Positions 1 through 24,436 of a DNA stretch of 32,000 bases are shown piece by piece. The notes beneath the pieces were generated by a model, which saw only the letters and a program-made list of their open reading frames with translations, did not search any database and was not told where the DNA came from. The DNA is from an uncultured bacterium (lineage in GTDB: Bacteria; GCA-001730085), in the NCBI GenBank assembly GCA_964565945.1, contig CAZMGY010000010.1, positions 1 through 32,000 of the forward strand. The letters run 5' to 3'. The stretch's first letter is position 1, and the number at the start of each line of letters is the position of its first letter. The translations under genes and the position numbers were made by a program.

Positions 1-16
1 GAGGGGCTTTTTTATT
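1..16. terminator. Possible distal half of an intrinsic terminator cut by the window edge
   Basis: GAGGGGC followed by T6 (gaggggcttttttatt) at the window start. The complementary arm would lie outside the window, so the hairpin cannot be verified. It lies just beyond the stop of the minus-strand peroxiredoxin gene. Confidence 0.25.
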
Positions 17-34
17 GCTTCAGGGAGAGCTCTT

Positions 35-625
35 TTAAGCATTTGCAAAATAAGCTTCCAAACCTTCTTGATTAGGTTTCATAGATGTTTCGCCTGTTTT
101 CCAGTTAGCAGGACAAACTTCGCCGTTCTTTTCAAAGAACTGCAGGGCATCAACCATACGCAAAGCTTCATCAATATTACGACCCAAAGGAAGATCATTC
201 ACAACTTGATGGCGCACAACGCCTTCAGTATCAATTAAGAAAAGACCACGATAAGAAGCAGCTAATCCATCAACCAAAACATCATAAGCTTTAGAGATCT
301 CTTTATTGAAATCCGAAAGAATAGGGTAAGTTACACCTTCGATACCCCCCTTGTTTTTAGGTGTGTTCAACCAAGCCACGTGAGAAAACCATGAGTCAAC
401 AGAACAACCCACAACTTGAACATTGCGTTTTTCAAAATCCGCCAATTTGGACTGAAATGCATGCAACTCCGTAGGGCAAACAAAGGTGAAATCCAAAGGA
501 TAGAAGAAAAGCACAACATGCTTTCCTTTCAAATCCGACAACTTGTAAGAGTCGACAACTTCATTACCATTGACAACCGCTTTCACATCAAACTCAGGGG
601 CTTGCTTTCCAACTAATACTCCCAT
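35..625 (-). CDS. Typical 2-Cys peroxiredoxin (AhpC/Prx1 subfamily)
   Basis: 196-aa ORF with peroxidatic Cys motif FTFVCPTE and resolving Cys EVCPANW. It lies 15 nt downstream of the SOD gene on the same strand. Confidence 0.93.
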   Translation of the reverse strand: MGVLVGKQAPEFDVKAVVNGNEVVDSYKLSDLKGKHVVLFFYPLDFTFVCPTELHAFQSKLADFEKRNVQVVGCSVDSWFSHVAWLNTPKNKGGIEGVTYPILSDFNKEISKAYDVLVDGLAASYRGLFLIDTEGVVRHQVVNDLPLGRNIDEALRMVDALQFFEKNGEVCPANWKTGETSMKPNQEGLEAYFANA

Positions 626-640
626 AGGAGACTCCTTTCT

Positions 641-1264
641 TTAGTTAACAACTTTTCTTGGGGATGTTTTAAAACGTGCAGCCACTTTATCCCAATTAAC
701 AACACTCCAGAAAGCTTTAATCCAATCTGGACGCACATTTTTGTATTGCAAGTAATAGGTATGCTCCCACACATCAATCGTGAGCAAAGGTGTTTGTCCT
801 AACGACAAAGGGCACACTTGATCATGAGTGGTGGTCACTTCCAACTTATCTTGAGAATTTACCACCAACCAGGCCCAGCCAGATCCAAAGTGAGTAGCCG
901 CCTTGGTGCTAAACGTTTCTTGAAACGCTTTAAATGAACCAAAAGCACCCGTAATTGCGTCGGACAAAGCTCCTTCAGGGGCACTGCCACCATTAGGAGC
1001 CATAGACTCCCAAAAAAATGTGTGATTGTAATAGCCCCCACCATTGTTAATCACAGCCGTTCTTTTGTCATCTGCAATGCTATTTAGACTTGTCAAAATG
1101 TCTTCAATTGCTTGACCAGCAACACCCGCTGTTTTAGCTGCAGCATTCAACTTATCGGTATAAGTTTGATGATGTTTGCCATGATGAACACGCAGTGTTT
1201 CCTCATTATAATGAGGTTCAAGCGCATTATAATCATAAGGAAGATCAGGTAACGTAAAGACCAT
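641..1264 (-). CDS. Fe/Mn-family superoxide dismutase
   Basis: 207-aa ORF with family motifs HHGKHH, NNGGGYYNH and DVWEHTYY. Metal specificity cannot be decided by eye. Confidence 0.93.
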   Translation of the reverse strand: MVFTLPDLPYDYNALEPHYNEETLRVHHGKHHQTYTDKLNAAAKTAGVAGQAIEDILTSLNSIADDKRTAVINNGGGYYNHTFFWESMAPNGGSAPEGALSDAITGAFGSFKAFQETFSTKAATHFGSGWAWLVVNSQDKLEVTTTHDQVCPLSLGQTPLLTIDVWEHTYYLQYKNVRPDWIKAFWSVVNWDKVAARFKTSPRKVVN

Positions 1265-1448
1265 TGTCTTCTCCTTTATGTTTGTACTGATTCAATTCTA
1301 TATTAACCCTGCTTGCAGGGAGTAATATCTGTTCCCATGTCTTAAATTCTTAATCATAGTTAATTGCACAGCCTTTGTCAAGCAAAGTTACGGTTAGGCT
1401 ATTCTCTTGAGTGATAAGTCTTGGCAGAAGAAGATCCCTTACAGTACA

Positions 1449-2399
1449 ATGGCTCTTATGGAAAAGGCCGTTAAATTTCTTAAAATCATAGGCAATGGGC
1501 CAAAGTCAAATCGTGATTACACATGTCAAGAAGCGTTTAATCTAATGCAAGCCTTGATCGACGGAGATATTTTTAGCGACGCCCAGCTAGGGGCCTTGTT
1601 GTTGATGATGCGACGAAAAACCACCACAGCCGACGAGCTCAAAGGTTTTCTTGATGCCTGGGAAGATCGTTTTCCGCCGCAAGATCGTTGGTCCCAACAA
1701 ATGAGTCTTTTACTCGCCAACCCATTTGATGGCAAAAAGCGCTCGATTGCCCTATCTTCCTTAGCCGCCTGTTCGTTGGTGAAACAAGGTATTCCCGTGG
1801 TCATTGGAGGCGTGGATCGTTTAGGCCCCAAGTTTGGCGCCACGGAGCAACAACTTTTTCAAGCCAGCAAAACCCACAAACTGCCTATCGATCAAAAATA
1901 CCACCCAGTCCTGTGGGATGCTTGTGAACTTTATCCTTTTTATCGGCCCTTGATCAAGTTACGCAATCAACTTGGCTTCCGCAGCTTTTTGCATACCATC
2001 GAAAAATGCGTCAATCCTTACAAAGCAACCCATGCCATTTTAACCTTGCATCACGATCCCTATATTGAGCGTTTCATCCATATGGCTCAAACCCGTTTTG
2101 AAAGTGCCACACTTCTGTTTGGAGAAGAAGGCAGTGCCGACCTTTGCTGGAAAAAGCCCACTCGCTACATTCGAGTGACAGGCGATATCATCGAAGACGG
2201 TCAAATCGACCCTGCCGAATGGCAACTGCCCCAGCTATGCTCTCAACGACCTGGCGGTGTCGAAAACACTATAGCCTTTTGGACAACAGCACTCACAGAC
2301 CCCCAAAGCTCCGAAGCGGTATGGCTTCAAGCCCAAACAGCTCTTTTACGATTTGCCTTAGGCGAAGGTCAACACCCTTACGAGCTCTTCACAAGATAA
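1449..2399 (+). CDS. YbiB/TrpD2-like protein (glycosyl transferase family 3 fold, not a canonical TrpD)
   Basis: The ORF is open from TTG 1407. I place the start at ATG 1449 by comparison with my recollection of the E. coli YbiB N-terminus. IIGNGPKSNRDYT...DAQLGALLLMMRRKTTTADELKGF and NPFDGKKRS...GIPVVIGG parallel YbiB. There are no trp genes nearby. Confidence 0.7.
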   Translation: MALMEKAVKFLKIIGNGPKSNRDYTCQEAFNLMQALIDGDIFSDAQLGALLLMMRRKTTTADELKGFLDAWEDRFPPQDRWSQQMSLLLANPFDGKKRSIALSSLAACSLVKQGIPVVIGGVDRLGPKFGATEQQLFQASKTHKLPIDQKYHPVLWDACELYPFYRPLIKLRNQLGFRSFLHTIEKCVNPYKATHAILTLHHDPYIERFIHMAQTRFESATLLFGEEGSADLCWKKPTRYIRVTGDIIEDGQIDPAEWQLPQLCSQRPGGVENTIAFWTTALTDPQSSEAVWLQAQTALLRFALGEGQHPYELFTR

Positions 2400-2595
2400 A
2401 GCGCTACAACGGTGGTAAGGTGAGTCCGATTATGAGCCTTTTTTTTTGGGGGGGGGGATTCTAAGCCTCAGCCAAAGAGCCCGAGGAACCAACAGCTCAT
2501 CCAGGGACTTTAAGAGAAATCTAGCCCCCTACATACAGGTCAAGACTTTAATTTGTACCAAGTGCAAGTTGAAGCTCAGGCCTAAAAAAGAAGAT

Positions 2596-3975
2596 TTAAG
2601 ATTTTTTGAATTCCGCCACAAGACTTTGCAAGGTTTGCTTGGCATCACCAAAAATCATCGCCGTGTTGTCTTTGAAAAAGAGGGGATTTTCCAGGCCCGA
2701 AAACCCTGAGGCCATCGAGCGTTTGAGTACATACACGGTTTGGGCATGATCAACATTGATCACAGGCATGCCATAAATAGGTGAACTTTCATCTTCACGT
2801 GCCGAAGGATTCACCACATCGTTGGCCCCAATCACAAGAGCTACATCGACAGATGCAATTTTGTCATTCATTTCATCCATATCAATCAACTGCTCATAAG
2901 GCACATTGGCTTCGGCCAACAACACATTCATGTGCCCAGGCATTCGGCCTGCCACTGGATGAATTGCATACACAACTTCGGCGCCATTGTCTTCGAGAAT
3001 CTTACCTAATTCATGCACCACATGCTGAGCCTGAGCCACAGCTAAACCATAACCAGGAATCACTGCAACAGTTTGAGCGGCTTCGAGCACATAATAAGCA
3101 TCTTCGGGGCTAACACTTTTGGCCTCTTGTTGGATACTTCCCTTTGACCCAGAAGAATTACCGCCACCAAAACCTCCAAGTAAAACATTCGATAAAGAGC
3201 GATTCATTGCCTTACACATAATAGTTGTTAAGATAAGACCACTAGCTCCAACTAAAGCTCCCGATACAATAAGTAAATTATTTTGAAGTGCAAATCCAGC
3301 AGAAGCTGCTGCTAAGCCCGAATAACTATTCAATAACGAAATGACAACTGGCATGTCAGCGCCACCAATCGGCAATACCATTCCTTTGCCTAAACCTAAA
3401 GCAAGCAATAAGGCCACGTAAAATATCCAAGGATTCTGCAGAGGGTTTTGAGCAAATATCAGACCCAAAACTAATAGCGCCATTAAAATAAGAAAATTCA
3501 CAAAGCGCTGTCCCCAAAAAGTGATGGGACGTGTAGCGACTATACCACTGAGCTTGCCCCAAGCCACGCAGCTTCCCGTGAAAGTTAACGCACCAATCAA
3601 AACAGCCAAATACACCATAGCTGCGGTAAAAGGATCATTTAAGCTTCCTTGCTCAAAAGCGGCCCATCCCACGCACAAACTAGCCAAACCTCCAAAACCA
3701 TTAAACAGCGCCACCATTTCAGGCATGGCCGTCATTGCTACCATACGTGCAACTACTGTGCCTATAAGACTACCCACAACAACCCCTAAGGCAATCCAAC
3801 GATAATCTAAGATATCTTGATGTAGCAAGGTTACAATAACAGCTAAAAACATACCTAAAGCTGAAAGCAAATTGCCTTTACGTGCGGTGAGAGGTTTACC
3901 TAGTTTTTTAAGCCCTAAAATAAATAGAGCAGCACTGACCAAGTACACTATGCTAATCACAATATTCATCGACAT
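2596..3975 (-). CDS. pntB: NAD(P) transhydrogenase subunit beta
   Basis: 459-aa polytopic N-terminal part plus C-terminal NADP(H) domain (GYGLAVAQAQH, HPVAGRMPGHMNVLLAEA, VIGANDVVNP). It is the last gene of the pnt cluster. Confidence 0.95.
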   Translation of the reverse strand: MSMNIVISIVYLVSAALFILGLKKLGKPLTARKGNLLSALGMFLAVIVTLLHQDILDYRWIALGVVVGSLIGTVVARMVAMTAMPEMVALFNGFGGLASLCVGWAAFEQGSLNDPFTAAMVYLAVLIGALTFTGSCVAWGKLSGIVATRPITFWGQRFVNFLILMALLVLGLIFAQNPLQNPWIFYVALLLALGLGKGMVLPIGGADMPVVISLLNSYSGLAAASAGFALQNNLLIVSGALVGASGLILTTIMCKAMNRSLSNVLLGGFGGGNSSGSKGSIQQEAKSVSPEDAYYVLEAAQTVAVIPGYGLAVAQAQHVVHELGKILEDNGAEVVYAIHPVAGRMPGHMNVLLAEANVPYEQLIDMDEMNDKIASVDVALVIGANDVVNPSAREDESSPIYGMPVINVDHAQTVYVLKRSMASGFSGLENPLFFKDNTAMIFGDAKQTLQSLVAEFKKS

Positions 3976-4006
3976 ATTACTTATTTCCTCTTACTTAACA
4001 TAAAGA

Positions 4007-4300
4007 TTACGCTTCTTTGGCTTTAAACATCGACAACATCCTATGTGTAACAAGGTAGCCTCCCACCACATTGATGGTAGCAAACACAACCGCCAAAGTG
4101 CCTAAAATCACACTCCATTTCGACCCAGAGGTTTGCCCCGCGGCCACCATTGCACCAATCAAGGTAATTCCCGAAATAGCATTTGCGCCAGACATTAAAG
4201 GCGTATGCAAAGTGGAAGGAACCTTAACAATCAATTCAAATCCTAAAAAAATCGACAGCATCAAAATGAACGCTAAAAAAATAATCGTTTGCGCATCCAT
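4007..4300 (-). CDS. pntAB: NAD(P) transhydrogenase subunit alpha part 2 (membrane part)
   Basis: 97-aa hydrophobic ORF between pntAA and pntB, as in split-alpha transhydrogenases. Confidence 0.9.
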   Translation of the reverse strand: MDAQTIIFLAFILMLSIFLGFELIVKVPSTLHTPLMSGANAISGITLIGAMVAAGQTSGSKWSVILGTLAVVFATINVVGGYLVTHRMLSMFKAKEA

Positions 4301-4311
4301 TGCGTTTCTCC

Positions 4312-5430
4312 TTAGTCAAAAGTTCGTACAACTTGGCCTTGGTGCGTTAGCACAGCCTGCAACATAATTTCATCATCAGCCACATAAGATATTTTGAGAG
4401 CCTCTTTATCCCAAAAGTGAGATACAAAATGATAAAGATTAGATGCATACATCTCACTTGTGGGTAAGGGCACACGCCCTGGCAAGTTCCCATAGCCAAT
4501 AATTTTTACCCCATTCACATCAATCAACTGATCAGGCTTAGAACCAACCACATTGCCGCCAGTTTCGGCCGCCATATCAACAACCACTGAACCAGGTTGC
4601 ATTGAGGCCAATATTTCTTCGGTCACAAGCACAGGCGGTTTGCGTCCAAATACTTGAGCCGTTGTAATAACAATATCACTGCTTGCGCACACTTTGGCCA
4701 TGGCTTCGCGCTGCATCTGTAGTTGCTTCTCGGTTAAAGCTTTGGCGTAACCTCCGGCGGTTTGCCCCGTTTCGCCCACATCAATTTTGACAAACTTGGC
4801 GCCTAACGACTGAACCTGCTCTTCGACCACAGGACGCGTGTCATAAGCTTCGACTCGTGCTCCCAAACGTTTAGCCGTTGCAATCGCTTGCAGACCAGCA
4901 ACACCAACACCAATTACAAACACTTTGGCTGGAGAAATGGTTCCAGCCGCGGTTGTCATCATCGGAAAAATCTTTGGCGACTCCTCTGCAGCTAAAATAA
5001 CCGCCATATAACCACCTAAATTAGCTTGCGAACTCAATGCATCCATTTTTTGAGCCAGTGTTGTTCGAGGGATCATTTGCATGCTAACAGAGGTCACACC
5101 TTGAGCTGCCAAAGCTTGAACCAATTCTTGCTGATCAAAAGGACTCAAATAGCTGATATGCCAAGCCCCTTTTTGCACAAGCGCAATCTCATCGGATGGG
5201 GAAGGATGCAACCGTAAAACAATATCGGCCTGCGCTAAAAGCTCCTGGCGGTCGTCGATAACTTTGGCTCCAGCCAATGTAAATGTTTCGTTAGACCAAC
5301 CCAAATGCTGTCCCAACTGACTTTCGACCATAACCTCTGCCCCAAGAGTCGTTAATTTTTTCACCGAATCAGGTGAAGCCGCAATACGTGTCTCTGCAGT
5401 CAAAGCTTCCCAAGGAATAGCAATTTTCAT
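4312..5430 (-). CDS. pntAA: NAD(P) transhydrogenase subunit alpha part 1
   Basis: The ORF is open to 5457, but MKIAIPWE from ATG 5430 matches the usual N-terminus. It has the alanine-dehydrogenase-like fold with NAD-binding GVGVAGLQAIATAKRLGA. Confidence 0.93.
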   Translation of the reverse strand: MKIAIPWEALTAETRIAASPDSVKKLTTLGAEVMVESQLGQHLGWSNETFTLAGAKVIDDRQELLAQADIVLRLHPSPSDEIALVQKGAWHISYLSPFDQQELVQALAAQGVTSVSMQMIPRTTLAQKMDALSSQANLGGYMAVILAAEESPKIFPMMTTAAGTISPAKVFVIGVGVAGLQAIATAKRLGARVEAYDTRPVVEEQVQSLGAKFVKIDVGETGQTAGGYAKALTEKQLQMQREAMAKVCASSDIVITTAQVFGRKPPVLVTEEILASMQPGSVVVDMAAETGGNVVGSKPDQLIDVNGVKIIGYGNLPGRVPLPTSEMYASNLYHFVSHFWDKEALKISYVADDEIMLQAVLTHQGQVVRTFD

Positions 5431-5737
5431 ATAAATCGAACCTTTATTATCTTTCATCTATGACTATAATTATGAATCAATCAAGCACATCTATATCGTA
5501 CCATACCCTATAAGGTATATTTTTATTAGTCATCATGTCAGAGTGTTTTTTATGGCCTACTGAAGAAAATACTTTTGAATATGTAGCTGCTATATTTGTT
5601 TCTGTCTCAATATACAAATCATCAGGGATATTATGAGATCCATCGTGTTGAGTTAGTAGTAAGGTATTGATAAAAGTTGAAACTTTAAGAGCAGTATTGC
5701 TATTTAAAGCAGGGAAGTGGGGGTCAATGGCCTTTTA

Positions 5738-5766
5738 TTATCAAGGCTAAGTGATTGCATTATAAT
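5738..5766 (+). promoter_or_regulatory. Candidate sigma70-type promoter (TTATCA-N17-TATAAT)
   Basis: Consensus -10 TATAAT at 5761-5766. A 4/6 -35 TTATCA at 5738-5743 has a 17-nt spacer. The region is AT-rich, so a chance match is quite possible. Confidence 0.3.
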
Positions 5767-5773
5767 GTGCGGG

Positions 5774-5802
5774 TGCTAACAAGCCTGTACGGGCAGTTAG
5801 AA
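5774..5802 (+). mobile_element. attC-like fragment (R''-spacer ... R' only)
   Basis: TGCTAAC-AAGCC (same spacer as the 6692 site) is followed 10 nt later by GTTAGAA. CTAAC and GTTAG are complementary. It is far too short (29 bp) for a functional attC. Confidence 0.25.
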
Positions 5803-5871
5803 GTTCGTTGGTGGAGGTTGAGTTTATAGTTTAAAATATTCATAAGCACAGAAGTTTGGTTACCTTTGGTG

Positions 5872-5902
5872 TTTTTACCCATTGGGTGAAAAGGTTTTTT
5901 TT
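5872..5902 (+). terminator. Intrinsic terminator-like hairpin plus T8
   Basis: TTTTTACCC (5872-5880) pairs with GGGTGAAAA (5884-5892) as a 9-bp stem with one G-U and a 3-nt loop. GG and T8 (5895-5902) follow. Confidence 0.45.
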
Positions 5903-6009
5903 GTTGAAACCATTATAGCAGTTGGGATTTTTGTGTTTTTTGTTTTCTATTTTTGGATGGGGGTAATTATATTTTGAATCATAATAATAATTATGACCTT
6001 AATAAATAG

Positions 6010-6442
6010 TTATGTGTAAAAAGGAGAATAACAAATGAGCAATATCCAAAGAATAAGTATGCCAAACCCAGTTATATATATTGTTGCATTACTGCTCTTT
6101 ATTGGTGCTGCACCATTACCATATGGCTATTACATGCTTCTTCGGTTAATAGTGTGCGGTGTTTTTGCATGGGCATCTTTTATTACTTATGAGCGAAAAC
6201 ATGAAACATTACCTTGGGTGTACGGAATAGTGGCAATACTTTTTAATCCATTGTTGAAAATACATTTTCCTAAAGAAATTTGGGTGTTAATTGATATCGC
6301 TACTGCTATATTATTACTTTACACACGCAAGGTAATCCAGGTGCAACCAAATGAAAACACATAACAAGTCGTCCAACCTAGCCTTTTTATATGCCGTACC
6401 GCTTCGCTATGCTCTGTATAAAAAGGCCAGTTAACTCAAACG
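6010..6442 (+). mobile_element. Integron-type gene cassette 1 (ORF plus attC)
   Basis: The boundaries are G|TT at 6009|6010 (GTTATGT) and 6442|6443 (GTTATAT). The first six bases TTATGT plus a preceding G are the exact reverse complement of the cassette's own R'' box ACATAAC (6359-6365). The ORF starts 25 nt inside the boundary. Confidence 0.7.
6035..6364 (+). CDS. Small integral membrane protein, DUF6804-like (cassette cargo)
   Basis: 109-aa ORF with AGGAG 8 nt upstream and 3-4 hydrophobic helices. PYGYYMLLRLIVCG ... NPLLKIHFPKEIW matches my recollection of the DUF6804 family (not searched). The stop TAA lies inside the attC R'' box. Confidence 0.8.
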   Translation: MSNIQRISMPNPVIYIVALLLFIGAAPLPYGYYMLLRLIVCGVFAWASFITYERKHETLPWVYGIVAILFNPLLKIHFPKEIWVLIDIATAILLLYTRKVIQVQPNENT

Positions 6443-6448
6443 TTATAT
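6359..6448 (+). mobile_element. attC recombination site 1 (90 bp)
   Basis: The site reads ACATAAC-AAGTC-GTCCAAC-cta-GCCTTTTTATA(6381-6391)-25 nt-TATAAAAAGGC(6417-6427)-cag-TTAACTC-aaac-GTTATAT. That is R''/L''-stem-L'/R' order with an 11-bp perfect central stem. ATAAC and GTTAT are complementary. Confidence 0.75.
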
Positions 6449-6748
6449 TGTAAACAATAAAAAGTACTTTAAAGTCAAAACAAAATTCATTTATCGTTTG
6501 ATACCTTTTAGTTTATTTGGTGCATTAATGAGAAGTGCCAAATAAAAAAAGCAACGCTACACAAATAGTCAGTGCCATGAATGGTGCCAGCCAAATAAAA
6601 GTAAAAAATCAAGTTTAAGTGCAATTCAAAAAAATCAATGATAGCCAGGTAAGTTAAACATTGAAGGTATGTGGTATAGTCTTAGTCCGCAATATAACAA
6701 GCCAATCAACAGCGACCGGCAAAAAGCGTCGTCGCGTTATCTTAAACG
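6443..6748 (+). mobile_element. Integron-type gene cassette 2 (ORF-less)
   Basis: It starts TTATAT. G plus TTATAT is the exact reverse complement of its own R'' ATATAAC (6692-6698). It ends at G6748 of GTTACAA. There is no ORF longer than about 13 codons ahead of the attC. Confidence 0.6.
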
Positions 6749-6754
6749 TTACAA
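6692..6754 (+). mobile_element. attC recombination site 2 (63 bp)
   Basis: The site reads ATATAAC-AAGCC-AATCAAC-AGCGACCGGC-AAAAA-GCGTCGTCGC-GTTATCT-taaac-GTTACAA. GCGAC (6712-6716) pairs with GTCGC (6731-6735). The box order is the same as in site 1. Confidence 0.6.
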
Positions 6755-6791
6755 AACACTTCAATATATTCAAAGATACGAGATTTAGCCG

Positions 6792-7070
6792 CTATTCTGG
6801 TTTGGGTGATATTGTTGGTTTTGAATAGTCAAACCCCATACTGGCCACGATACGCTTCAATGCGTTCAATTTTCTATTCCTATGCCTCTTTTTCTCTAAA
6901 ATTACCTGAATTTGGTATGGGTATATTTTACTGGAGAGGTGTTTTTGAGGGTGTATTTTGCAACGGTCTCGATTTAGGTATTCAAGATCGCTTAATGATG
7001 GACTTATTTGAGCAGCTTGGTCGTATTGACTCCTCTTTGACGCCAGAGCTTGAGGGGCGCGCAAGCTCAC
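6792..7070 (-). CDS. Doubtful basic 92-aa ORF overlapping the ispD stop (GTGA)
   Basis: GTG start overlaps the ispD TGA by 4 nt. I recognise no motifs. A same-phase antisense ORF (6806-7144, plus strand) is equally open, so one or both are shadows. Confidence 0.2.
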   Translation of the reverse strand: MSLRAPQALASKRSQYDQAAQISPSLSDLEYLNRDRCKIHPQKHLSSKIYPYQIQVILEKKRHRNRKLNALKRIVASMGFDYSKPTISPKPE

Positions 7071-7780
7071 GGGCGAGTTCTGGAGGCGGCGTAGTCCTTG
7101 GCTTTGGCATAGTCATCGGGGTGGGTAACTTTAAAGTTATCTAAACTACCTTCAAACAAGTGAACCGTATATCCTAAACGATGAATTAAGAGGGCATCAT
7201 CGCTAGTGTCGGTGATGCTCTGTGTTTGGGCTTGTTGATGAGCTTGCCAAATCAGATCAAATTGAAAACATTGAGGCGTTTGCACAGCGACAAGTTCGTC
7301 GCGCTTCAGGGCTTCTGCGATTGTTGCGCCCTGTTGGCGCACAATGGTGTCGGTGACAGGAACGGATGGTTCGGCCGCGCCATGTTTGTGAGCTAGATCT
7401 AAGCCTTGCGAAATCATATCTTGAGAGATAAAGGGTCGTGCCGCGTCGTGAATGGCCACAAGTGCAATATCGTTATCCAGGTGATGCAATGCTTGTAAAC
7501 TGTTGAACGAAGAATGTTGGCGTGTGGTGCCTCCAATTACCACCTGCAAAGGTCGGCTTAAAGGAATGGCACGCAAAAGATCAATATAAGGCGATTCTTC
7601 GCCGTCGGCGATAGCGACCACCAGGTGTTGAATCCATGGGTGACGATCGAATTGTTGCAAACTGTGGGCAATTAAAGGTTGATCGCCCAAGGGTAAAAAT
7701 TGTTTCGGTTGATTGTAGTCTTGCATACGGCTGCTGGTTCCTCCGGCCAAAACAATGGCCCCACTCTTGGGGGCTATCAT
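7067..7780 (-). CDS. ispD: IspD-family cytidylyltransferase (2-C-methyl-D-erythritol 4-phosphate or related polyol-phosphate)
   Basis: Motifs AIVLAGGTSSRM, AIHDAARPF and VQTPQCF. The start is placed at ATG 7780, which forms an ATGA overlap with the HAD gene stop. The longer ORF to 7831 lies inside the HAD coding region. Confidence 0.85.
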   Translation of the reverse strand: MIAPKSGAIVLAGGTSSRMQDYNQPKQFLPLGDQPLIAHSLQQFDRHPWIQHLVVAIADGEESPYIDLLRAIPLSRPLQVVIGGTTRQHSSFNSLQALHHLDNDIALVAIHDAARPFISQDMISQGLDLAHKHGAAEPSVPVTDTIVRQQGATIAEALKRDELVAVQTPQCFQFDLIWQAHQQAQTQSITDTSDDALLIHRLGYTVHLFEGSLDNFKVTHPDDYAKAKDYAASRTRP

Positions 7781-8334
7781 GATATTGGCTCCTGAGGGAG
7801 GTCTTGCACATATACAAAAGAAACTTGACAAGCCTCGGCTGTTTGTTGGTCGGTGATTTTATCTCCCGAAAAAATTAAGCTGTTTGGTTGGATCGAAAAA
7901 TGATCCAGAATAATTTGAATCCCATCGGGGTGAGGTTTGAATTGTGCAATATCTTCGAAGGCTAAGGTGAGCGAAGGTTGTAAAGAGATGTCTTTAAGAA
8001 TACGTTCAATAGTGGAGGCACAGTTGTTGGACAAAATGGCCCAAGGTTGATCGGTTTGCAAGAGGTAATTCACCAAGGGCTGATTGTTGGTGAACGAACA
8101 GTTGTTCTCGTGTTTTTGCATAAGGATTTGAGCTTCTTGTTTTACCTCGGGGCCGTGTTTTTCGCTGGCAACATCAATCATTTGATGAATGGGGTAAGAG
8201 TCTCCATCGAATTGGTAGTTATTGCGAAGAAAGTTAAGCAAGTCTTGTCTGACCTGTCCCCAGTCTACATCCATCGTGACGATGGTGGAGTCGAAGTCAA
8301 ACGCTAAATAAGGGTATTGGTTTAAGATGTTCAT
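7777..8334 (-). CDS. HAD-superfamily phosphatase
   Basis: 185 aa with HAD motifs I DFDSTIV, II ILSNN, III KPHP and IV GDKITD. Confidence 0.85.
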   Translation of the reverse strand: MNILNQYPYLAFDFDSTIVTMDVDWGQVRQDLLNFLRNNYQFDGDSYPIHQMIDVASEKHGPEVKQEAQILMQKHENNCSFTNNQPLVNYLLQTDQPWAILSNNCASTIERILKDISLQPSLTLAFEDIAQFKPHPDGIQIILDHFSIQPNSLIFSGDKITDQQTAEACQVSFVYVQDLPQEPIS

Positions 8335-14110: not shown

Positions 14111-14383
14111 AGAGTCGCACTAGACGGGGAAGTAGCGGGGCCCTGTAACCTGCAATCCGCTATAGCAGGGTTGAAGTCCCTCCAAAAGGATTTTTGTCTT
14201 TTTTTATGGGTTAGTAGCGGTGTTGAGGGGCAAGTCCTGGACAATAAAGGTTTATGAATTCCGTCAGGTCTGGAAAGAAGCAGCGGTTAATAGGCTCTAT
14301 TTATGTGTCTTTAGGATAGCTTGTTCTGAGTCGTTTGTTGATTTGTGGAAAAGCAACAGTTTGGCGGGGGGTGGGCGACTCCC
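14111..14383 (+). ncRNA. ffs: Signal recognition particle RNA, large (Bacillus-type, with Alu domain)
   Basis: The 5' part GACGGGGAAGTAGCGGGGCCCTGTAACCTGCAATCCGCTATAGCAGGGTTGAAGTCCCTCC closely parallels my recollection of the B. subtilis scRNA Alu domain. The helix 8 motif GTCAGGTCTGGAAAGAAGCAGCGG (14263-14286) has a GGAA loop. The closing helix is GAGTCGC (14112-14118) with GCGACTC (14375-14381). It sits upstream of dnaX as in Bacillus. Confidence 0.85.
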
Positions 14384-22144: not shown

Positions 22145-22173
22145 TATCATTATTTTTTATATAATGATATTAG
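22141..22173. terminator. 13-bp perfect inverted repeat spanning both convergent stop codons
   Basis: CTAATATCATTAT (22141-22153) and ATAATGATATTAG (22161-22173) with a 7-nt loop. It covers the truA TAA (22142-22144) and the metE stop (22150-22152). It is very AT-rich, so it would be weak as a terminator. Confidence 0.4.
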
Positions 22174-24436
22174 CTGTTTGCTTGCTAATACCATATTTTC
22201 CAAGGCTGGCTTAACCTCAGCCCAGTTGCGAGTCTTCAGTCCACAATCAGGATTTACCCATAAACGCTCTGCAGGAATACGTTGTGCGGCTTTTTGCATA
22301 AGTTTAACCATAGCGTCCACTGTAGGAATATTTGGTGAGTGAATATCGTAAACACCTGGTCCAATTTCATTTGGATAAGCAAAATCATCGAAAATATCTA
22401 ATAATTCCATATCAGAGCGAGAGGTTTCAATGGTAATAACATCTGCATCCATTTGTGCGATTGCCTCAATAATATCGTTGAATTCTGAATAGCACATATG
22501 TGTATGAATTTGGGTTTCATCCTTGACACCGTTGGCACTAATTCGATAGGCATTAACTGCCCAATCAAGGTATTCTTGCCATTGAGATTTTCGTAATGGT
22601 AAACCCTCTCTTAAGGCTGCCTCGTCAATTTGAATGATATTAATATTTGCTTTTTCAAGATCCATAACTTCATCTCTGATGGCAAAAGACAATTGCAAGC
22701 AGGTGGTTGCACACGGCTGGTCATCACGAACAAACGACCAGTTGAGCATTGTTACAGGCCCTGTCAGCATTCCTTTCACAGGCTTATCTGTCAATGATTG
22801 TGCGTAAGTTGCCCATTCTACTGTCATCGGTTTTGAGCGAGAAATATCACCGAAAATAATGGGCGGTTTGACGCAACGAGAACCATAAGATTGCACCCAG
22901 CCAAATTGAGTGAAGACGTAACCCTCTAATTGTTGCCCAAAACACTCTACCATATCGTTGCGTTCAGGCTCACCGTGAACCAAAACATCTAAGCCCAATT
23001 CTTCTTGCACCTTTATACAATGTTGCACTTCAGCACGCATTGCTTTAATATACTCAACTTCCAGTAATTGTCCTGTTTTATAGCCTCGTCTTGCTTGTCG
23101 AATTTCTGTCGTTTGTGGGAATGAGCCAATTGTCGTCGTTGGATACAACGGAAAATTAAACTGTTCACCTTGAATTTTTGCCCTCACTTCGTAACCGGAT
23201 TGGCGATTGCCTAAGGCATCACTCGCATCAGTAACACGCTTTTTAACTAGGCTATTGTGGACAAGTAATGAATGTTTTCGGTCATCAATTGCATTAATAT
23301 TACTCGCTATTTCTTTGGTAACACTCGCCTGCCCTTGATTGAGTGCCTTCGCTAAAATTCGCAATTCTTCCAATTTTTGCACAGCAAAAGACAGCCACGA
23401 TTTAATATCCGCATCCAGCTCTTGTTCGTTGTCTAAAATCCACAGGCACATGTAGTAGCGAACAAGAGGGGGCTAGCCACAACCTGTCTTTTAGTTGATG
23501 ATAAATAGGTTCTAACCATAATAAAGTTGCACTTAAATCCGTTTTCCAAATATTACGACCGTTAATAACACCCAAAGATAAAATTTGGTTATCTGCTAAA
23601 TTATCAATCACTTTTTGCACTTCTTCTTTGGCGTTAATTGCATCAATATGCAGCCCATCAACAGGTAAGTTGCAAGCAAGCGTTAAGTTATCTTGCAAAG
23701 TGCCGAAATAACTGGCAAGTAGTAATTTAACGGGACTGTTGGTTAATGATTGGTAAGTTTTTTCAAACGCCAATTGCCAGTCTGCTAATAATTCTGTGAC
23801 CAAAATAGGTTCGTCAATTTGTATCCATTCTATGCCTAATTTTGCCAACTCATCAAATAATTGGGCATATATCGTAACCAGCGAATCTAATAAATCCAGT
23901 TTGTTGGTTGCGTCCTTGGATTTACCCAGCCATAAATAAGTAACAGGCCCTACAATAACAGGCTTGGTATTGACCCCCTGTGCTTTTGCTTCCATGATTT
24001 GTGCAATCAAGCGTTTCGGTTGTAATGCAAAATTCGTTTCTTGGCTAAATTCTGGCACAATATAGTGATAATTGGTGTCAAACCATTTGGTCATTTCACC
24101 CGCTTGGACGCAAGTGCAACTAGGTTCATTGACCGAAGCGCGTCCTCGTGCCACTCGAAAATAGTTATCCAATTCATTGTCCGATATATTTTCAACGCGT
24201 TGTGGCACATTGCCCAATAAAAAACTGCTGTCTAAAATTTGGTCATAAAAAGAAAAATCACCTACAGGTACTAAATTTAAAGCACTTTGATTTTTCCAAT
24301 GATGTTGACGCAGTGTGCTAGCGGTTTGTAATAATTCTTCTTGAGAGATAGGGTTTGCCCAATATTTTTCTAATGCAAACTTTAACTCTCGTTGCTTACC
24401 GATACGGGGGAAGCCTAAGCTGTGTGTTGTAACCAT
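22150..24436 (-). pseudogene. metE: Cobalamin-independent methionine synthase, disrupted by a single frameshift
   Basis: Two overlapping ORFs (23402-24436 and 22150-23451) together cover a full-length MetE (HSLGFPRIG ... [10 protein letters not shown] | [14 protein letters not shown] ... C-terminal Zn-binding HMCYS). The coding strand reads GATTTTAGAC where GATTTAGAC would keep the frame. Confidence 0.85.

Follow-up and report, generated by a model that had tools for sequence, protein, structure and literature searches.

Two tandem integron gene cassettes occupy the intergenic region between pntAA and ispD in a stretch of 32,000 nt from an uncultured bacterium (assembly GCA_964565945.1, contig CAZMGY010000010.1, positions 1 to 32,000 of the forward strand; hereafter the window). 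They correspond to a CALIN, a group of clustered attC sites without an integrase, and we regard it as nearly certain that they are real cassettes forming such a cluster. The fuller reading that we favour, in which the tandem cassettes form a CALIN that was inserted by an integron integrase acting in trans, is in our judgement probable, and the specific route proposed for this insertion, recombination of an attC site with a non-att target (attG), has slightly better than even chances of being correct. By definition, a CALIN has two or more attC sites separated by less than 4 kb and no intI gene in the vicinity (Cury et al., 2016, IntegronFinder; PMC4889954). In the present locus, where each cassette has its attC site after the cargo, two attC sites lie on the same strand, 243 bp apart, and no intI gene is found nearby, so that the locus is a CALIN by the published definition. 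A previous sequence-only reading of this DNA had opposed a CALIN to a two-cassette insertion at a secondary GTT site; the first proposal is upheld, and the two are not mutually exclusive.

The attC sites were searched with two home-made covariance models, which stood in for the model of IntegronFinder; Rfam has no attC family, and a permissive Rfam scan of positions 5400-7100 (E ≤ 10) returned nothing relevant. The first model, R1, was built from 17 attC sites of clinical class 1 integrons, after locating IntI1 on plasmids and reading 16 cassette arrays. These sites are those of aac(6')-29a, blaVIM-2, arr-3, aac(6')-Ib, aadB, aadA2, dfrA12, dfrA5, aadA5, dfrA27, dfrA1, aadA1, estX, psp, cmlA1, qacL and gcuF, and the model describes three stem pairs together with the R box and the bulged L box. 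For the second model, R2, we used 73 attC sites that R1 had detected in metagenomic arrays, all of them foreign to this organism. Both models were run on the two strands of the window (a search space of 64 kb), R1 with its filters off. Two sites, attC1 and attC2 (Table 1), are the sole significant matches (E < 0.01) in the window with both models, the runner-up of R1 having an E-value of 0.74. In a control, R1 was run on 552 kb of loci (1.1 Mb of strands): the best unrelated score was 14.1 bits, and attC1 and attC2 were found again only in L058, a copy of the same locus. The matches of R1 and R2 coincide exactly with the two elements of 90 and 63 bp (6359-6448 and 6692-6754) in which the sequence-only reading had recognized the layout of attC sites, and the covariance-model search that it had proposed as a check thus gave significant matches at both sites with our models.

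The boxes of the two sites can be delineated to the base. In attC1, R'' (ACATAAC, 6359-6365) is followed by the spacer AAGTC, L'' (GTCCAAC), a central stem of 14 bp (6378-6391 with 6417-6430, recovered as an inverted repeat) that closes a 25-nt loop, L' (GTTAAC), the spacer TCAAAC and R' (GTTATAT, 6442-6448). In attC2, R'' (ATATAAC, 6692-6698) is followed by the spacer AAGCC, L'' (AATCAAC), a short GC stem, L' (GTTATC), the spacer TTAAAC and R' (GTTACAA, 6748-6754). The AAC and GTT triplets of the R boxes are invariant in both sites, and the purine/pyrimidine pattern of the other four positions (RYYYAAC/GTTRRRY) is loosely kept, while the sites are unlike in length and central sequence. The covariance-model alignments show unpaired spacers of 5-6 nt between the R and L boxes of both sites and a bulged C in each L'' box, i.e., GTC[C]AAC with GTTAAC in attC1 and AAT[C]AAC with GTTATC in attC2, with one non-canonical pair per L box. 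This bulged C of the top strand corresponds to an extrahelical G on the recombinogenic bottom strand. Taken together, these features identify both elements as predicted canonical attC sites.

The elements were also folded, another check that had been proposed. The extrahelical bases and the unpaired spacers are those of the covariance-model alignments, and the bottom strand of attC1 has a more stable predicted fold than the top strand (-11.5 vs -8.6 kcal/mol) because an A.C mismatch turns into a G.T pair; z-scores from folding each element in isolation are unremarkable (-0.5 to -1.9), so that the evidence for attC comes from the models and from homology, not from thermodynamics. As anticipated for cassette-borne sites, the hairpins are not scattered, with no further copy of either in the 32-kb window. 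On its bottom strand, attC2 also matches a terminator-like pattern (6701-6720 on the minus strand, then TTGTTATATT) on the strand of the ispD operon, and this site could, judging from this pattern, serve as a terminator for read-through from ispD.

The limits of the cassettes are defined by the same boxes. In both units, the reverse complement of R'' reads as a G followed by the first six bases of the unit itself, as expected for circularisable units: the left junction, GTTATGT (6009-6015), matches the reverse complement of R'' ACATAAC (6359-6365) base for base, and GTTATAT (6442-6448) that of ATATAAC, cassette 2 opening with TTATAT. These pairings had been pointed out in the sequence-only reading and are confirmed by direct reading, as are the position of the open reading frame (ORF) 6035-6364, which begins 25 nt inside the G|TT boundary, and that of its TAA stop codon within ACATAAC. 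Neither covariance model places the end of an attC site at position 6015, i.e., at the left junction. At this junction G6009 is target DNA and TTATGT represents the first bases of cassette 1; if the cassettes were inserted, the sequence from TTACAA onward, past G6748, would again be target DNA.

Table 1. Coordinates of the cassettes, their attC sites, their junctions and their neighbours in the window.
Feature	Position	Strand	Description
pntAA/AB/B	2596-5457	minus	Left-side neighbours of the cassettes (Pfam and annotation)
Left flank	5458-6009		Non-coding, 552 bp, 33% GC; from the pntAA start to cassette 1
Left junction	6009-6015	+	G|TTATGT; crossover between G6009 and T6010
Cassette 1	6010-6442	+	433 bp; leader, DUF6804 ORF, and attC1 up to the G of R'
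DUF6804 ORF	6035-6364	+	109 aa, small membrane protein; Pfam PF20619, E=6e-26
attC1	6359-6448	+	90 bp; R1 23.7 bits (E=4.7e-4), R2 23.1 bits (E=2.6e-3)
Cassette 2	6443-6748	+	306 bp, 33% GC, A+T-rich
attC2	6692-6754	+	63 bp; R1 19.9 bits (E=4.9e-3), R2 41.8 bits (E=1.3e-7)
Right junction	6748-6754	+	G|TTACAA, the R' box of attC2
Right flank	6755-7066		Non-coding, 312 bp; extends to the ispD stop codon
ispD	7067-7831	minus	Followed by a HAD hydrolase gene

The single gene of cassette 1 encodes a protein of the DUF6804 family, for which we detected 173 relatives at E ≤ 1e-5, the best non-self one being 70% identical. The named relatives come from Methylotenera, Methylobacter, Crenobacter, Shewanella, Campylobacterales, Nitrospira and others, mostly proteobacterial metagenome-assembled genomes, many of them on short contigs, and in the three contexts that were read the gene lies within runs of small co-oriented genes punctuated by R1 matches. 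A scan of metagenomes of the Joint Genome Institute (JGI) retrieved 80 DUF6804 loci (L072-L151), on which R1 detected 151 sites at E ≤ 0.1, all but one on the strand of the gene. At least one attC site (E ≤ 0.01) is present in 41 of these 80 loci, and in 32 of the 80 an attC site starts between -15 and +80 nt from the end of the DUF6804 match. Next to the arrays of two loci lie IntI homologues, 57% identical to IntI1 over 320 amino acids in L124 and 42% in L133. On these grounds DUF6804 is, as far as sequence comparison can tell, a recurrent integron-cassette family. A possibly disrupted IntI homologue was also noticed next to the DUF6804 array of L088.

At the DNA level, cassette 1 is 69-70% identical to the cassettes of loci L065, L066 and L067 over the gene and R''. 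L065 and L066 share with the window the junction between gene and attC site (..NENT*, R'' ACATAAC), and there too the stop codon sits inside R'', like the TAA at 6362-6364 of cassette 1. On the 5' side, homology to L066/L067, L090 and L077 begins exactly at G6009, with a common leader GTTATGTGTAAAAAGGAGAA..ATGAG. The DNA located 5' of this shared leader corresponds to the 3' half of an attC match in L066 and L090, the two sites being different, to unrelated DNA in L077 and to unrelated A+T-rich DNA in the window. Cassette 1 thus recurs in other genetic contexts (L066, L090, L077) with the same G|TT boundary.

In many cases the DUF6804 gene occupies the second place in a cassette of two genes, after one that encodes a membrane protein of 97-113 amino acids (L066, 9633-10382; L068, 9697-10300). 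The cassette of L066 measures 750 bp and encodes a 113-aa membrane protein and then DUF6804, and cassette 1 of the window is shorter by about 317 bp, which represents nearly the whole first gene. An alignment with 13 homologues places the family start at residue 9 (MP.AVIYI), corresponding to an ATG at 6059. The first eight codons of the ORF (MSNIQRIS) are an in-frame fusion relic, in which the start region of the first gene has been joined to its last codons, and cassette 1 is, from this comparison, a shortened form of a widespread cassette and a deletion derivative of a two-gene cassette. The leader carries GGAG at 6023-6026, followed by the ATG at 6035; cassette 1 would therefore bring its own Shine-Dalgarno sequence, yet would rely on a promoter of the host for its expression.

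Cassette 2 contains no convincing ORF, the longest ones encoding 38 amino acids on the minus strand and 27 on the plus strand, and about 90 fetched cassette loci yielded no homologue of it; we take it for an ORF-less cassette or a decayed one. Being bracketed by attC1 and attC2, it would stay excisable if an integrase were provided.

No gene for such an integrase was detected in the window. A tblastn search with IntI1 across the window gave only noise (E ≥ 0.75), and neither Pfam searches nor the precomputed annotations revealed a tyrosine recombinase (Phage_integrase) or transposase domain in the window ORFs. Other mobile-element genes, insertion sequences (IS) and terminal inverted repeats are likewise lacking in the window. 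In particular, the left flank (5458-6009) contains no attC site detectable with either model and no intI remnant detectable by tblastn with IntI1. In a complete integron, intI lies by attI and the Pc promoter upstream of the first cassette; here the first cassette is preceded by 552 bp of non-coding DNA and then by pntAA, with no intI. The statement of the sequence-only reading that the cassettes are flanked by housekeeping genes (pnt, ispD) and that no tyrosine recombinase is encoded in the 32 kb is therefore borne out by Pfam, the annotations and the IntI1 search.

The locus could be compared with distant relatives and with other assemblies of this organism. Among GTDB representative genomes, the nearest PntAA is 55% identical and the gene order differs there. 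The nearest non-self IspD (59%) is encoded on a 3.4-kb contig with a different, convergent gene after ispD, and on the contig encoding the nearest MutS (78%) synteny is lost before reaching the pntAA-ispD region. The closest named MutS relative (65%) is that of 'PVC group bacterium (ex Bugula neritina AB1)'. The lineage is very poorly sampled, making a comparison with an empty site impossible. Twenty-one per-sample contigs, bearing DUF6804, IspD or PntAB, could be read back; they are 99.9-100% identical to the window, match it without a difference over the parts of the cassettes that they reach and exhibit no alternative junction at 6009, 6442 or 6748. Hence, the element appears to be fixed and not actively shuffling, a genomic passenger.

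In the scenario that we favour for the origin of this CALIN, an integron integrase provided in trans, encoded either at another place in the genome or on a transient mobile element, would have recombined the folded bottom strand of an attC site with a 5'-GTT-3' target, not an att site, in the DNA between pntAA and ispD (attC × attG). The cassettes could have entered in one step as a two-cassette circle, or cassette 1 could have come first and cassette 2 later, at the resident attC site; the left junction would then have turned into a poor site. Insertion at attG is a published route to small CALINs, with a minimal consensus 5'-GWT-3' (bioRxiv 10.1101/2022.09.11.507474), and the crossover triplet is GTT at both junctions of the locus, in agreement with this consensus. 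An insertion is favoured by the base-exact left junction, by a left flank that represents neither an attC site nor a remnant of intI, and by the lack of IS. Joining the flanks, from 6009 to 6749, gives AATAG|TTACAAAAC. We also considered an insertion splitting a gene and rejected it: joining the flanks restores no ORF, indicating that no gene was disrupted.

Several observations weigh against this scenario. We have not seen an empty site, the relatives found being too distant (IspD 59%, MutS 78%). An attI site is unrecognisable by sequence, so that the left flank could be a degenerate attI. Our search for intI covers the window, which extends 6 kb beyond the cassettes on the left and 25 kb on the right. 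Both the flip in GC skew and the break of synteny at this place would also be expected from a rearrangement that split an integron. Finally, the E-values of the attC models are rough, since they come from a shortened calibration, and attC1 scores only about 23 bits.

The most serious alternative, which we consider possible but rather unlikely, is that the cassettes are the remnant of a complete chromosomal integron, whose intI gene and attI site were once located to the left of cassette 1 and have been deleted or rearranged away. This is the classical explanation of CALINs (PMC4889954). The GC skew of the top strand changes sign at about 5.4-5.6 kb whichever strand the genes are on, and synteny with the nearest relatives breaks exactly here, two features that fit a rearrangement breakpoint beside the cassettes. 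In a variant of this explanation, the rearrangement may have been mediated by IntI, between attI and an inverted secondary site, and would then leave a clean G|TT junction too. Against such a remnant, tblastn revealed nothing similar to IntI anywhere in the window, the DNA between cassette 1 and pntAA amounts to only 552 bp of non-coding sequence, without IS or transposase, and the junction is exact to the base. Moreover, intI pseudogenes are lacking in 95% of CALINs, and small CALINs are now thought to be often insertions (bioRxiv 10.1101/2022.09.11.507474; PMC4889954).

It is far less probable that the cassettes are cargo of a larger mobile element (a transposon, an integrative and conjugative element or a prophage) inserted between pntAA and ispD. 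Such an insertion would agree with the A+T-rich composition of the entire 1.6-kb intergenic region (27-40% GC vs 43% for the window) and with the segment 5683-5937, which behaves like repeated or polymorphic DNA in each of the per-sample assemblies. The window, however, encodes no transposase, recombinase or other mobile-element gene and contains no terminal inverted repeats, and the homology boundary of cassette 1 is the exact G|TT crossover, the signature of IntI recombination. As for generic intergenic hairpins, of the repetitive extragenic palindrome (REP) or bacterial interspersed mosaic element (BIME) type or terminators, with a chance likeness to attC beside an ordinary resident gene, they would suit the unremarkable z-scores, the terminator-like bottom strand of attC2 and the A+T-rich region, but this explanation is effectively refuted: two foreign models select just these sites in 64 kb, nothing comparable occurs in the 1.1 Mb of control strands, the window holds no more copies, and the gene, the attC junction and the 5' boundary are homologous to array cassettes located beside IntI genes.

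The left part of the intergenic region presents a second peculiarity. Each long per-sample contig has its end at 5682 or its start at 5938, with 99.9-100% identity to the window on both sides. The segment 5683-5937 (or 5653-5967, given an assembly with k=31) must therefore be either repeated or polymorphic, in every sample alike. Within it lie a sigma-70-like promoter (5738-5766, plus strand) and a terminator-like hairpin with a T-run (5872-5903, plus strand), which could, from their arrangement, frame a small RNA of about 130 nt. The segment 5683-5937 has no Rfam match, no significant fold, no second copy in the window and no match among viral contigs, and no record was found for its 40-aa ORF. 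A mini hairpin of 29 nt is located at 5774-5802 on the plus strand (TGCTAACAAGCC-N10-GTTAGAA), with boxes resembling R'' and R' and no L boxes; we see in it a fortuitous match or else the scar left by the collapse of an attC site. As a candidate third attC site it was rejected: with its R boxes only, it scores 11-11.6 bits in both models (E 0.7-1.6), which is not significant.

This segment adjoins the change in nucleotide composition. The top-strand GC skew is negative from 1 to 5000 and positive from 7000 to 32000, whatever the strand of the genes, and it flips around 5400-5600, at the left edge of the A+T-rich intergenic region, a pattern produced by a replication origin or by a rearrangement breakpoint. 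No cluster of DnaA boxes was found at the skew switch, and we did not retain a replication origin there. One may imagine that 5653-5967 is a repeated or variable capture platform, either attI-like or a landing pad present in several copies, on which an unlinked integrase would act; the cassettes would then not have landed at random, and the locus would be a split integron in a lineage related to the Planctomycetes-Verrucomicrobia-Chlamydiae (PVC) group; we regard this as a long shot. The break zone is the only feature that could lift the locus above an ordinary CALIN.

The remainder of the window has a conventional content. On the other side of the cassettes, the ORFs of the right flank (6755-7066), none of which matches a Pfam family, extend into the end of ispD. 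One of them (6860-7144, plus strand; 94 aa), called on public contigs, overlaps ispD at its 3' end, on the other strand, and is unlikely to be a gene. All other genes of the window are housekeeping ones according to Pfam and the precomputed annotation, encoding AhpC, superoxide dismutase (SOD), the pnt products, IspD, a glycosyltransferase, a radical-SAM enzyme, fumarase, EndoIII, DnaX, YbaB, MutS, MutL, MetE, an aminotransferase, a subtilase, ArgF and ArgG. The cobalamin-independent methionine synthase MetE (22150-24436, minus strand) is encoded in two overlapping ORFs, corresponding to the N-terminal domain (23402-24436) and to the catalytic domain (22150-23451), which suggests a frameshift, in either a pseudogene or an erroneous assembly. 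A full-length Bacteria_large_SRP RNA, the long form of the signal recognition particle (SRP) RNA, is present at 14115-14378 on the plus strand (144.6 bits).

The locus provides a clean natural case, resolved to the base, of cassettes stranded outside any integron in a poorly sampled bacterium related to the PVC group. It fits the recently proposed spread of cassettes into genomes via minimal GWT sites, and it adds DUF6804 to the recurrent cassette-borne families of unknown function. Thousands of small CALINs have already been catalogued, so that our understanding of integrons is unchanged. The locus stands out only by its host lineage, by the deletion that gave rise to cassette 1 and by a second cassette without an ORF, and a specialist would find nothing surprising in these features.

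Comparison with known systems places the locus close to described elements. The attC sites of aadB and aadA1 from class 1 integrons resemble attC1 in layout and in much of their outer-box sequence (TAACAAnTCGTCCAA...TTAACTCAnnnGTTA), whereas the central stem of attC1 is A+T-rich and longer (14-bp stem, 25-nt loop); unlike class 1 integrons, the locus carries no resistance gene and neither 5'-CS nor 3'-CS. With the environmental DUF6804 cassettes (L066, L090, L124, L133 and others), cassette 1 shares the gene family, at 53-70% amino-acid identity, the C-terminal codons that run into R'' ACATAAC and the 5' leader starting from G|TT. It differs from them in the centre of attC and in a lower GC content (40% vs 52-57% for the attC sites of the homologous cassettes of L065 and L066), and from the cassettes of L066 and L068, which have two genes, in the deletion of the first gene, of which an in-frame relic of eight codons remains.

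Among CALINs, the locus is a typical small one, with two attC sites on one strand and a cargo of unknown function as in most CALINs (PMC4889954). CALINs with two attC sites are the commonest class (1362 of 2961 in RefSeq; bioRxiv 10.1101/2022.09.11.507474), and we see no qualitative difference from them, the host here being an uncultured PVC-related lineage. With respect to the attC × attG insertions and single attC sites lacking integron integrases (SALIN) described by Loot et al. (bioRxiv 10.1101/2022.09.11.507474), the locus differs by its two cassettes instead of one and by the absence of the hotspot-associated CRGM motif at +6 to +9, replaced here by AAAC. In mechanism it is nevertheless closest to these insertions, which it resembles in its GWT crossover, its left flank with neither an attC nor a recognisable att site, its intergenic position with no gene disrupted and its intact right-end attC site fused to the target.

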